Shown here piece by piece: positions 7,265-43,185 of a stretch of DNA of 64,000 bases (position 1 is the stretch's first letter; each line of letters begins with the position of its first letter). The notes under the pieces were generated by a model. It worked only from the letters and a program-made list of their open reading frames with translations. It searched no databases and had not been told where the DNA came from. The position numbers and the translations under genes were made by a program. The stretch spans positions 198,815 to 262,814 of the forward strand of contig JAGYNB010000001.1 of the NCBI GenBank assembly GCA_018400015.1, read 5' to 3'. This DNA comes from Candidatus Omnitrophota bacterium (lineage in GTDB: Bacteria > Omnitrophota > Gorgyraeia > Gygaellales > Gygaellaceae).

Positions 7265-8080
7265 ATGTTTAATGCTATTGTAATATTCTTATTGGGTTTG
7301 ATTGTAGGCAGTTTTTTAAATGTCTGTATTTTCAGAATGCCCAGAGGTATTTCAGTTGTAAAGCCGCGATCATTTTGCCCGCAGTGTAAGAAAATGGTCC
7401 GCTGGTATGAGAATATCCCTTTATTTAGTTATATTGTTTTGCGCGGTAAGTGTCCAAATTGTAAAACAAAGATAAGTTTTCGTTATTTTGTTGTTGAGTT
7501 ATTGACTGGAGTAAGTTTTTTAGCGCTTTATATTAGGTTTGGTTTAAAAATAGATCTTATTACAAATTTGATTTTAGTTTCAAGTCTCATTATTGCTACG
7601 TTCGTTGATATAGATTTTCGTGAAATACCCGACGAGATAACTATCGGCGGGATGGTGGTTGGGTTATTGTTCGGCTTGGTAAAAACTTTTTCTACAGGGT
7701 TTAGCATGAGCTGGGATCTTCCGGTCATACAATCTCTTATCGGTTTACTGGCAGGAGGAGGACTACTTTACATTACCGGGCTCTTTGGAAATTTCTTGTT
7801 TTTTAAACTTATGAAAAGAGATAATATCGATGGAGAGACTGAGAGTATGGGCGGAGGAGATATAAAGCTTTTGGCGATGATTGGGAGTTTTTTAGGCTGG
7901 AAGATAGCGGTGTTAGTATTTTTCATAGCCCCATTCATCGGATCTTTCGCAGGAATTTACGAATTAATAAAGACAAAAAAACACACCATACCTTATGGAC
8001 CGGCTATCGCATTAGCGAGTGTGGTGTCTATTTTCTGGGCGGATAAAATCGTATTGTGGCTTTTTGGTATTAGACTTTAA
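7265..8080 (+). CDS. pilD: prepilin peptidase (A24 family)
   Basis: A CPxC...CPNC zinc-binding N-terminal domain is followed by polytopic membrane helices with conserved Asp residues. The arrangement is typical of PilD/GspO. Confidence 0.8.
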   Translation: MFNAIVIFLLGLIVGSFLNVCIFRMPRGISVVKPRSFCPQCKKMVRWYENIPLFSYIVLRGKCPNCKTKISFRYFVVELLTGVSFLALYIRFGLKIDLITNLILVSSLIIATFVDIDFREIPDEITIGGMVVGLLFGLVKTFSTGFSMSWDLPVIQSLIGLLAGGGLLYITGLFGNFLFFKLMKRDNIDGETESMGGGDIKLLAMIGSFLGWKIAVLVFFIAPFIGSFAGIYELIKTKKHTIPYGPAIALASVVSIFWADKIVLWLFGIRL

Positions 8081-40217: not shown

Positions 40218-40814
40218 ATGAAATATCCTCTTTCTATAGAGCAATTAATAGATTATCTAGTAAAATTCCCAGGCGTAGGAAGGCGAAGCGCAGAGCGAAT
40301 CATCAGCTATATTTTGGATACTTCAAAAGACGATATTGAAAAACTTTCTAATGCTTTAATGAAAGTTAAATCCAGTATTAGGCTGTGCAAGGTTTGTAGC
40401 AACTTAAGCGATGATGAGATGTGTCTTATTTGTAAAAACCCTTCAAGGAATAAAGATGTTATCTGTGTTGTGGAATATCCCAATGATGTTATTGCGATTG
40501 AAAAGACTTCAAGCTACAAGGGCGTGTATCATGTTTTAATGGGTTCAATCTCTCCTTTAGAAGGAAGGGGCCCTGATGACATAAAGATAGAACGGCTTAT
40601 TAATAGAATTAAGACAACCCAGGTAAATGAAATCATTATCGCTACTGGTTCAGATATGGAAGGTGAAACAACGGCAATGTATCTTGTAAAGATGCTAAAA
40701 CCCTTAGAGGTAAAGATCTCAAGAATAGGTTTAGGCATACCTATGGGCAGTAACTTAGAATATATAGACAGCGCTACATTAACTAAGGCTATTGAAACAA
40801 GAAGAGAGTTCTAA
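40218..40814 (+). CDS. recR: recombination protein RecR
   Basis: HhH, Cys4 zinc finger (CKVCSNLSDDEMCLIC) and Toprim motifs are present. Confidence 0.9.
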   Translation: MKYPLSIEQLIDYLVKFPGVGRRSAERIISYILDTSKDDIEKLSNALMKVKSSIRLCKVCSNLSDDEMCLICKNPSRNKDVICVVEYPNDVIAIEKTSSYKGVYHVLMGSISPLEGRGPDDIKIERLINRIKTTQVNEIIIATGSDMEGETTAMYLVKMLKPLEVKISRIGLGIPMGSNLEYIDSATLTKAIETRREF

Positions 40815-40815
40815 T

Positions 40816-41292
40816 ATGAAACATAAACAAAAAAGAAAATGCCGTTTTTGTGGGATGCCGCTTGAGGGCCTGGGGGCAAAGATTATTTATTTGTTTTCTG
40901 GCAACAAGGCAAGCGAAGAAGATAGCCACATCTGTATCAAATGCCATAAAAAAATTGAGCGTAGACAATTTGAAAGATTTTTAGTACAATATGAAACCGG
41001 TCTTAGGCATTTTGAAAATGAAGATTTTGCTTTAGCTAATACTCACGATCTTAGCGAGGGCGGAGCCAAGGTAGAATCGAAGATGGTTTTGATGAAGGGT
41101 AAGGCCGTTCATCTGAAGCTTTTTTTGGAGCATTTAAGAGAATATATAGATTTAGTTGGTTCTGTTATTTGGTATGATGATTCAAAAAAAGATAAGTTTA
41201 CCTGCGGCATAGAGTTTAAGTATTTAAATCCTCATGCCAAGCAGCGTTTAAAGTCGCTCATTGAAGAAGCAAAGAAGATAAGAAAAAAATAG
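40816..41292 (+). CDS. PilZ-domain c-di-GMP receptor with N-terminal zinc ribbon
   Basis: RRQFERF and DLSEGG PilZ motifs are present. An N-terminal CRFC...CIKC ribbon precedes them. The start was taken at the Met just after the recR stop. Confidence 0.6.
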   Translation: MKHKQKRKCRFCGMPLEGLGAKIIYLFSGNKASEEDSHICIKCHKKIERRQFERFLVQYETGLRHFENEDFALANTHDLSEGGAKVESKMVLMKGKAVHLKLFLEHLREYIDLVGSVIWYDDSKKDKFTCGIEFKYLNPHAKQRLKSLIEEAKKIRKK

Positions 41293-41296
41293 ATAT

Positions 41297-41569
41297 TCCC
41301 CCGTAGCTCAGTTGGTAGAGCGAGTGGCTGTGTAATAAAACGCAGCTTCTGCGGGAAACCGTGGTTGAAACAGCGGGCTAATTCAGGGAAGTCCTTTAAA
41401 AAGGATAATCCTGAGCTAAGTCGTCACTAAAGTGGCGTAAATGTGCAGAGACTATATACCCGCCTCCCGTAACGTTAAGTCGTGGGAGAAGAGATAGTCC
41501 AAGTCCGGTAGTAATATCGGGTTACTTGTAACCACCAGGTCCGAGGTTCGAGTCCTCGCGGGGGAGCCA
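41297..41569 (+). tRNA. tRNA-Asn (GUU) interrupted by a group I intron in the anticodon loop
   Basis: The exons fold into a canonical tRNA: acceptor tcccccg/cggggga, D-arm agctcagttggtagagc, T-arm ggttcgagtcc identical to bacterial tRNA-Asn, discriminator G and encoded CCA. The spliced anticodon loop reads ct-GUU-aa. Confidence 0.75.
41332..41528 (+). ncRNA. group I self-splicing intron (IC3/Azoarcus-like, ~197 nt)
   Basis: Conserved core elements are visible: GGGAAACC P2 tetraloop region, R-like gcagAGACUAtata and S-like AAGAgAUAGUCC. The exon ends in U, which pairs with the G of an internal guide gcagc. The intron ends in G. Boundaries are ±2 nt. Confidence 0.7.
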
Positions 41570-41621: not shown

Positions 41622-41654
41622 CCCCACAAGTTTTAATCGGCTTGTGGGTTTTTT
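41622..41654 (+). terminator. rho-independent terminator after tRNA-Asn
   Basis: A ccccacaag...cttgtggg hairpin is followed by a T6 run. Confidence 0.6.
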
Positions 41655-41670
41655 GATGTAAGGAAGATAT

Positions 41671-42335: not shown

Positions 42336-42372
42336 ATTCACGAATAAACGTTTGACAATATTTATTAAATTT

Positions 42373-42428
42373 ACAGGCGATGGAGTTCGCCATTAACCGC
42401 CTCAACAAGGCTGATAACTCCTTACAAT
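42373..42428 (+). promoter_or_regulatory. fluoride riboswitch (crcB RNA motif)
   Basis: The sequence aGGCGATGGaGTTCGCCattAACCGCCtcaacaaGGCTGATaACTCCTtAC matches the crcB motif consensus. It lies directly upstream of crcB. Confidence 0.8.
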
Positions 42429-42448
42429 AAAAAAGGAGGAATTAGTTT

Positions 42449-42838
42449 ATGTTGAGGCTTTTTTATATAAGTGCAGGTGGCGCAGTTGGTGCATTAATGC
42501 GTTATTGGCTTTCAGGTGTGATCCAGCGTTTTTTTAATGGAGGCTTTCCGTGGGGGACACTGGGCGTAAACCTGATTGGATCATTGATTATAGGAATTTT
42601 GTGGGGGACATTTGAAACAGTTATTATCTCAGAGAATGTTAAGTTAATGATATTTATTGGCTTGCTTGGTTCCTTTACAACTTTCTCTACTTTTTCACTG
42701 GAGAGTTTTCATCTTATTCGTGACGGAGAATATAGTTTTTTCCTTATGAATGCGATAGCAAGTTTTCTTTTGGGTATTACCTTGGTGTTTGTCGGTTATT
42801 TTATCAGTCAATATCTATTTGTTTTGATAAGGAGGTAA
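42449..42838 (+). CDS. crcB: fluoride ion channel CrcB/Fluc
   Basis: 129-aa ORF with four TM helices and the GxxGxxTTFSTF motif. Confidence 0.85.
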   Translation: MLRLFYISAGGAVGALMRYWLSGVIQRFFNGGFPWGTLGVNLIGSLIIGILWGTFETVIISENVKLMIFIGLLGSFTTFSTFSLESFHLIRDGEYSFFLMNAIASFLLGITLVFVGYFISQYLFVLIRR

Positions 42839-42843
42839 CAAAA

Positions 42844-43185
42844 ATGAAGCTTCCCGAAGAAGGAACATTATTACGTATATTTTTTGGCGAATCAGATAAG
42901 CATAATAGCAAACCGCTTTATGAGGCCGTAGTAGTTAAAGCTCGTGAATTAGGTCTTGCCGGAGCCACCGTTATCAGAGGTATTATGGGTTTTGGGGCAG
43001 ATAGCCGTATGCATAGCGCAAAAATATTAAGATTGTCAAGTGATCTTCCGGTTATAGTTGAAATTGTCGATTCAAAAGAAAATATCCAGAAACTTATGCC
43101 TTTTCTTGATGAAGTTGTGCAGGAAGGCTTAATTACTATGGAAAAAGTAAGGGTTATAAAATACCGGCATAAAGATTGTGGATAA
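42844..43185 (+). CDS. DUF190 (PII-like) protein commonly co-regulated with crcB
   Basis: 113-aa ORF resembling DUF190 family members. The conserved GxxGFG motif is present. Confidence 0.7.
   Translation: MKLPEEGTLLRIFFGESDKHNSKPLYEAVVVKARELGLAGATVIRGIMGFGADSRMHSAKILRLSSDLPVIVEIVDSKENIQKLMPFLDEVVQEGLITMEKVRVIKYRHKDCG

Follow-up and report, generated by a model that had tools for sequence, protein, structure and literature searches.

A compact group I intron between nucleotides 35 and 36 of a tRNA-Asn(GUU) gene in Omnitrophota

Within the 64,000-nt stretch of Omnitrophota DNA analyzed here (the window), positions 41297-41569 of the forward strand hold what is very likely a working tRNA-Asn(GUU) gene, split between U35 and U36 of its anticodon loop by a compact group I intron that lacks an ORF and splices itself out, an arrangement known as the "Asn.4Ug" or "35/36" class. 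The locus is a new example of a published and experimentally validated arrangement.

The split tRNA-Asn gene and its splice sites

ARAGORN in its default mode called no tRNA at 41297-41569 and, across the 64-kb window, no other tRNA-Asn gene. When introns were allowed, it called the whole of 41297-41569 a tRNA-Asn(gtt) interrupted at position 36 by 197 nt of intron, and deleting 41332-41528 in silico yielded a clean 76-nt cloverleaf with the anticodon GUU (ARAGORN on the spliced sequence). An earlier reading of this DNA from its letters alone (the sequence-only reading) had proposed exactly such a gene, a tRNA-Asn(GUU) with an intron in its anticodon loop, and both results bear it out; the T-loop, discriminator G, and spliced GUU loop that it described are all present in the folded 76-mer, and its coordinates, its length of ~197 nt, and the motifs it quoted are each correct in the sequence. 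Exon 1 (nt 1-35; 41297-41331, +), delimited by ARAGORN and by the splice-site rule described below, contains the acceptor 5' strand UCCCCCG, the D-arm, the anticodon stem 5' strand AGUGG, and the loop nucleotides CUGU, the last of which, U35 (U41331), is the -1 U. Exon 2 (nt 36-76; 41529-41569, +), delimited by ARAGORN, contains U36, A37, and A38, the stem 3' strand CCACC, the variable loop, the T-arm, the acceptor 3' strand, G73, and CCA. The spliced tRNA thus has a U1-A72 pair, discriminator G73, the T-loop GGTTCGAGTCC, and an encoded CCA, and we take U1-A72 together with G73 to be Asn-type from E. coli tRNA-Asn.

The sequence permits a two-base shift of register at the splice sites, since it can be read either as CUGU/...UUG/UAA (Asn) or as CU/.../UGUAA (Thr). 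Given that ARAGORN ignores group I rules, we applied a splice-site rule after Williams (bioRxiv 10.1101/2020.01.27.920355), requiring U at -1 and G at omega and trying eight anticodon-loop positions. A single parse was admissible, CUGU/...G/UAA, which places the intron between nt 35 and 36, the insertion point that the sequence-only reading had preferred. The intron-terminal G that it had noted is G41528 (+), the only admissible omega-G: no other G fits both a 7-nt anticodon loop and U at -1, and this last intron nucleotide is G in all 28 sequences of the alignment described below.

The competing parse, a tRNA-Thr(UGU) with its intron at 33/34 (CU/.../UGUAA), is the one that ARAGORN gave at 28 related loci among the matches listed and that tFind also often returns. 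It is possible because exon 1 ends in CUGU and the intron ends in ...UUG before UAA, and the TGTAA string is almost invariant across our alignment. In that parse, however, the intron would end in U41526 and not in G, and the splice-site U33 would lie opposite A41344 with no U.G wobble; it fails the -1U/omega-G rule and was rejected for the window. It is further contradicted by P9.0 covariation, which positions G41528, and by a tRNA body that is of the Asn type (U1-A72, discriminator G73). Moreover, when Nakagawa et al. (mSystems 2026, PMC13011429) sequenced spliced products, genes called "Thr" in this way proved to be tRNA-Asn with a 35/36 junction. The chance that this gene encodes tRNA-Thr is negligible, that reading being effectively refuted already, and we treat the gene as tRNA-Asn(GUU) from here on.

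The spliced cloverleaf has one mismatch, A27.C43 (window 41323/41536), at the base of the anticodon stem AGUGG/CCACC. The same stem is present in an Omnitrophota relative, L087, while the same stem position is A-U in the relative L028 and G-C in L003. On the basis of this sequence comparison, A27.C43 looks like a tolerated lineage feature and not decay.

A PilZ-domain ORF (40792-41292), itself preceded by dnaX and recR, has its stop codon 4 nt ahead of the tRNA. We found no promoter-like site directly upstream of the tRNA, which, together with the 4-nt gap, suggests either co-transcription with dnaX-recR-PilZ or a promoter of an unrecognized type. A consensus scan placed a terminator-like hairpin (10 bp, 41623-41648) followed by a T-run (41623-41658, +) 54 nt downstream of the tRNA. 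Several features of the neighborhood can be recorded alongside these. The PilZ-domain ORF (+), listed with a TTG start, shares 23 nt with the end of recR. Directly upstream of crcB, which encodes a fluoride channel (42449-42838), lies a fluoride riboswitch (RF01734, 56 bits; 42367-42430, +); together with a DUF190 gene (42844-43185, +), the two form a standard fluoride-resistance unit. The window also holds seven intron-less tRNAs on the forward strand between 22900 and 38010, namely Arg(TCG), Lys(CTT), Ser(TGA), Ser(CGA), Ser(GGA), Arg(ACG), and Ser(GCT), and its four serine isoacceptors lie within ~4.7 kb.

Fold, subgroup, and proposed splicing of the intron

The intron (41332-41528, +) is 197 nt long, contains no ORF, and is identified as a group I intron by Rfam, by covariation, and by its single-sequence fold. 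The Rfam search that the sequence-only reading had proposed as a check returned a match to RF00028 (Intron_gpI) at 41322-41521 (+) that spans the full model (1-253) and scores 87 bits (E 8e-21), well above the gathering score of 50. We examined the fold in an alignment, A1, of the window intron with 27 clean CTGT/...G/TAA tRNA-Asn introns. RNAalifold recovered P1, P2, P3, P4, P5, P6, P8, and P9 from A1, and with them P9.0, a short helix between J7/9 and the three bases that precede the terminal G; a 2-bp helix (columns 210-219) and a pair between C274 and omega-G that it also proposed clash with P7 and were discarded. We next scored a fully specified structure of ten helices and 51 pairs, with the P7 pseudoknot among them. 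In A1, 97.9% of its cells are paired, compared with 35-48% when partners are slid by 1-3 columns, and 31 of the 51 pairs show compensatory changes; none of 500 shuffles reached any of the observed covariation measures. The minimum-energy fold of the single sequence has the same helices (z = -3.7), with 0/200 shuffles as stable.

P1 (41328-41345, +) pairs the exon nucleotides CUGU (41328-41331) and G41332 with the guide CGCAG (41341-45). Its U.G wobble and three exon pairs are invariant in 27/27 distinct sequences, while the first intron pair covaries (AU 9, GC 8, CG 5). The pairing of the exon-final U with a G of the guide GCAGC (41342-41346), anticipated by the sequence-only reading, is the wobble U41331.G41342. 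P2 (41351-41362, +) is a hairpin with a GAAA (GNRA) tetraloop and compensatory changes at 4/4 pairs. The two strands of P3 (41373-41377 and 41459-41463, +) pair in the window, and three of their five pairs show compensatory changes. P4 (41382-88/41409-15) encloses P5 (41392-95/41402-05) within 41382-41415 (+), and both draw on covariation: P4 is 100% paired with one covarying pair, and 3/4 pairs of P5 covary. Compensatory changes occur at all six pairs of P6 (41422-41437, +) and at three of the four pairs of P8 (41464-41488, +). Finally, P9.0 (41501-03/41525-27) encloses P9 (41504-10/41515-21, with a GUAA tetraloop) within 41501-41527 (+), with compensatory changes at 3/3 and 7/7 pairs, respectively, and P9.0 places G41528 as omega-G. 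The loops of P2 and P9 are GNRA in the alignment rows inspected.

P7, the presumed guanosine-binding helix, is supported differently. Its 5' strand, G-A(bulge)-GACUA (41448-41454, +), forms standard pairs with its 3' strand, AUAGUC-C (41495-41500, +), which is preceded by the J8/7 sequence AAGAG. P7 pairs perfectly in the window and matches the conserved P7 of RF00028, while its invariance in the alignment was imposed by the search pattern and does not represent covariation. Only 4 nt (UAUA) separate P7 from the 3' strand of P3, so there is no P7.1/P7.2, the helices expected of subgroups IA1 and IA2. The group I core signatures quoted in the sequence-only reading fall within these elements: GGGAAACC (41353-41360) is P2 with its GAAA loop, AGACTAT (41449-41455) is the 5' strand of P7, and AAGAGATAGTCC (41489-41500) is J8/7 with the 3' strand of P7. 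The RF00028 score, the U.G wobble in P1, the omega-G placed by P9.0, and the conserved core helices together identify the element as a group I intron; its fold and splice-site geometry, like the architecture of the gene, are established here.

These data also bear on whether the locus might be a decaying pseudo-tRNA, or an inactive intron relic, in a genome that obtains its tRNA-Asn from another gene. The A27.C43 mismatch and the absence of a promoter-like site immediately upstream would fit such decay. However, each helix in the window is made of standard pairs, none of the core positions that are invariant across the 28 aligned sequences has been lost, the mismatch recurs in L087, and dnaX-recR is conserved upstream at 10 or more related loci. 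In published Patescibacteria cases, furthermore, the split gene is the sole genomic copy of that tRNA (PMC13011429). We consider a relic very improbable and a functional gene, by analogy with its validated relatives, almost certain.

The sequence-only reading had called the intron "Azoarcus-like", which holds for its size and layout and, by sequence identity, not for its relatedness. The Azoarcus tRNA-Ile(CAU) intron (IC3, ~205 nt) and the window intron are both small and ORF-less, both reside in an anticodon loop, and both have helices P1-P9 with P9.0 and GNRA loops on P2 and P9. In contrast, the Azoarcus intron occupies a different host tRNA at site 36/37 and differs in its J3/4 and J7/3 junctions. 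An IC3 lineage member, such as the Azoarcus tRNA-Ile or Anabaena tRNA-Leu intron, that moved into tRNA-Asn could account for the similar size, the GNRA-capped P2 and P9, the missing P7.1/P7.2 insert, and core strings found in both, such as GTGCAGAGACT and AGATAGTCCAA. Yet the IC3 examples gave the lowest global identities of any introns compared (52% to Azoarcus, 50% to the Rhizobiales-type Arg intron, and 49% to an Omnitrophota fMet intron), and the window intron is instead 65-66% identical globally, and 80-83% over aligned columns, to 35/36 introns of tRNA-Asp and tRNA-Asn. In addition, its Nitrospirota relatives are labeled IA1 in Table S5 of PMC13011429, and that study placed no Patescibacteria tRNA intron in IC. 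An IC3 origin is unlikely, and "Azoarcus-like" probably describes size and layout, not lineage.

Given the 4-nt distance between the PilZ stop codon and the tRNA, the precursor of the functional tRNA-Asn would probably be transcribed with, or from within, the upstream dnaX-recR-PilZ genes, and transcription would probably end at the hairpin at 41623-41648. The intron would then adopt its P1-P9 fold, with the guide CGCAG (41341-45) pairing with C32-U35 of the anticodon loop and the first intron base, and U41331 in the U.G wobble. An exogenous guanosine bound in P7 would attack after U41331; P9.0 would bring G41528 into the same pocket, and the 3'-OH of U35 would attack after G41528 to join U35 to U36. 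By reading the sequence, we found P10 to be at best 1-2 bp and very weak. The exons are probably held together by the anticodon stem of the tRNA, rather than by P10, as in the Anabaena pre-tRNA intron, whose exons are aligned by the anticodon stem (Zaug et al. 1993, as cited in PMC13011429). Catalysis by the window intron we infer from experimentally validated relatives, and strongly so, because two introns studied by Nakagawa et al. (PMC13011429), one in a tRNA-Asn and the other in the tRNA-Asp of GCA_001029755.1, spliced themselves precisely at 35/36 in vitro, and exon ligation was blocked by an omega-G to C mutation.

Published relatives and related loci

The sequence-only reading had judged an Asn(GUU) host and this insertion point to be unusual. 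That judgment stands relative to the four classical host types, but not overall, since the class was published in 2020 and its self-splicing was demonstrated in 2026; the classical four-host list is out of date. Williams (bioRxiv 10.1101/2020.01.27.920355) extended the tRNA settings of such introns to 21, including Asn.4Ug, and Nakagawa et al. (PMC13011429) surveyed 95 complete genomes of Patescibacteria and found 35/36 introns in tRNA-Asn (15) and tRNA-Asp (3), assigning 25 of 28 published 35/36 introns to subgroup IA. The latter authors describe 35/36 insertions as "rare in other phyla", a statement that covers complete genomes only. In the available text of that study, Omnitrophota is absent from the main article and has one entry in the supplement, an fMet 33/34 intron of the IC3 type.

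The window intron shares with the other members of the class its location at nt 35/36 of a tRNA with a GUN anticodon, its -1 U, and its omega-G. The Asn.4Ug seed of Williams, Pam37.Asn.4Ug, is likewise found in tRNA-Asn(GUU), inserted after the fourth loop nucleotide (CUGU/UAA) with U at -1 and G at omega, but it is 276 nt long including a short 5' exon context, carries a P2.1-like helix and an insert after P7, and is 50% identical globally to the window intron, which represents a compact form. Closer is the Woesebacteria tRNA-Asp 35/36 intron, which matches the window intron in site, guide on CUGU, architecture, and the core motifs CTAATTCRGGGAA, AGAGACTATATACC, and GATAGTCC, is 80% identical over aligned columns, and belongs to the same compact subfamily. 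This intron (GCA_001029755.1, 196 nt), validated in vitro, is identical to our locus L029 and to Williams' seed Wba81.Asp.4Ug. The validated tRNA-Asn intron of GCA_016700035.1, on the other hand, contains a P7.1 insert, and its global identity to the window intron is 52%. The hosts of these Patescibacteria introns differ in phylum from the window, which derives from Omnitrophota. The tRNA-Asn 35/36 introns of Nitrospirota (e.g., GCF_900169565.1, given as IA1 in Table S5 of PMC13011429) have an almost identical P1-P2 region, GCAGCTTCCACAGGAAACTGTGGTTGAAAC, and are 83% identical to the window intron over aligned columns, although they are longer (248-347 nt), with a P7.1/P7.2-type insert between P7 and the 3' strand of P3 and longer P5, P6, and P8.

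We scanned one genome per species for the intron core motifs, using AGAGACTAT to exclude classical IC3 types, and obtained at least 119 loci (L001-L119), most of them in Patescibacteria, Omnitrophota, and loosely labeled metagenome-assembled genomes (MAGs). ARAGORN's isotype and intron-position calls proved unreliable at these loci, with Asn genes called Thr(tgt), Asp(gtc), or Tyr, and we replaced them with two tests. Among the matches listed, 27 loci were directly callable as CTGT/...G/TAA, and the splice-site rule classified 43 of 119 unambiguously as Asn.4Ug, with 16 more compatible. The second test, which is independent of ARAGORN, requires complementary anticodon-stem halves around the intron; it does not settle Asp loci, so only its Asn count was used, and it identified at least 68 of the 119 matches listed as Asn.4Ug with the junction CTGT/...G/TAA. 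All 28 of the "Thr(tgt)" calls among the matches listed start with U1 and satisfy the Asn.4Ug rule. In intron mode, the program turns many Asn.4Ug genes into Thr(tgt) at 33/34 or, with the 3' exon shifted, into Asp(gtc) or Tyr; it also calls some Asp.4Ug genes Ala(tgc). Williams (bioRxiv 10.1101/2020.01.27.920355) reported the Asn/Thr miscall as well.

Family members are 174-313 nt long (median, 195.5; n = 58 among the matches listed), and the 197 nt of the window intron is a typical length. The closest intron among the matches listed is that of the Omnitrophota locus L028, with 77% identity in the intron and 95% in the exons. At least 10 related loci have dnaX and/or recR upstream of the split tRNA, the best match to the window's genes among the matches listed being in Omnitrophota MAG177 (L087; DnaX 53% and RecR 61% identity).

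The subfamily is found at position 4 in both Asn and Asp, while Tyr and His calls are less secure. In the family, the guide GCAG reads anticodon-loop nucleotides C32-U33-G34-U35 (A1 columns 3-6 with 47-50). The sequence CUGU at loop positions 32-35 is common to the GUN-anticodon tRNAs, that is, tRNA-Asn, Asp, Tyr, and His. Since the guide reads a sequence that these tRNAs share, hopping among them by reverse splicing would be easy.

The organism labels of some matches call for caution. L010 (JAIWAR010000065.1), labeled as a Methanosarcinales archaeon, has a bacterial-type dnaX and recR, 35-48% identical to those of the window, beside its tRNA-Asn group I intron, and because of these adjoining genes it is probably a mis-binned bacterial contig. 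L074, a 2-kb contig labeled Methanobrevibacter sp., has a group I intron in tRNA-Lys, and its label is without flanking-gene support. Williams (bioRxiv 10.1101/2020.01.27.920355) suspected similar mis-binning for a "Pacearchaeota" hit. Records titled "MAG TPA_asm: uncultured Gammaproteobacteria" or "Planctomycetia bacterium" have exons and introns that resemble those of Patescibacteria- or Omnitrophota-labeled loci, and some of them, e.g., L105, have an Omnitrophota-like dnaX-recR; the organism names in these titles look like unreliable placeholders. The same core pattern also occurs on 54 IMG/VR viral contigs (L120-L173), where the split gene can be taken for tRNA-Asn (position 4) in 5 cases and for tRNA-Met/Ile2(CAT) (position 2) in 12; 35 contigs gave no tRNA call. 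Phage-borne copies could be a route of transfer.

Omnitrophota introns and their significance

Among the matches listed, 12 of 15 Omnitrophota-labeled loci carry Asn.4Ug, and the tRNA-Asn intron appears to be both common and syntenic in this phylum. Two Omnitrophota MAG contigs, L043 (oriented 7345-7911) and L076 (5865-6401), have larger tRNA-Asn 35/36 introns of 567 and 537 nt, in which the P1 loop contains an ORF of 113-127 aa with a CxxC...HH...CxxCH pattern. These ORFs are 48-54% identical (BLASTP, E ~1e-42 to 1e-44) to the ORF of a Patescibacteria Asn intron that bears a homing endonuclease gene (HEG; GCA_000503835.1). Against the Pfam HNH model, the L043 ORF scored below threshold (16.5 bits vs 21.4) and the L076 ORF gave no match. 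Judging from sequence similarity, the ORF is possibly a homing endonuclease. HEG-bearing IA introns at 35/36 have been reported only in Patescibacteria (Nakagawa et al., PMC13011429, complete genomes).

In four further Omnitrophota-type Asn introns (L085, L090, L031, and L007), 307-327 nt in length, the P1 loop is enlarged by an insert of 100-130 nt. These inserts start similarly (CAATGAGRC...) and look self-complementary, and we found no convincing ORF in them. Such an insert could be what is left of a former ORF, or it could be an additional RNA domain.

The increment offered by the window locus is taxonomic and modest, in that most documented members of the class are from Patescibacteria and this one is from Omnitrophota, and it leaves the understanding of how these introns work unchanged. 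Together, the Omnitrophota Asn.4Ug loci and the ORFs of L043 and L076 modestly extend the published complete-genome statements on rarity and HEG range. There is also a practical consequence for annotation, in that default tRNA finders miss the gene or call its relatives tRNA-Thr, tRNA-Asp, or tRNA-Ala, and such a genome would wrongly seem to lack tRNA-Asn, which affects completeness estimates; this point is made in PMC13011429 too. The sequence-only reading had placed the intron among the smallest known sizes, and we agree: at 197 nt, it belongs to a compact form of ~190-200 nt, one of the smallest group I ribozymes in nature and a possible subject for structural studies.

We lean, by a modest degree, toward a broader interpretation in which Omnitrophota is a second major reservoir of 35/36 tRNA-Asn introns, with forms that range from those of 189-221 nt without P7.1/P7.2 to copies with an endonuclease-like ORF of the Patescibacteria family. 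Largely vertical inheritance may apply within the phylum, since the dnaX-recR...tRNA-Asn neighborhood is conserved. If this interpretation is correct, it would revise two published statements, one calling 35/36 insertions "rare in other phyla" and the other limiting HEG-bearing IA introns at this site to Patescibacteria, and it would point to exchange between two lineages of ultra-small cells, possibly via phages.
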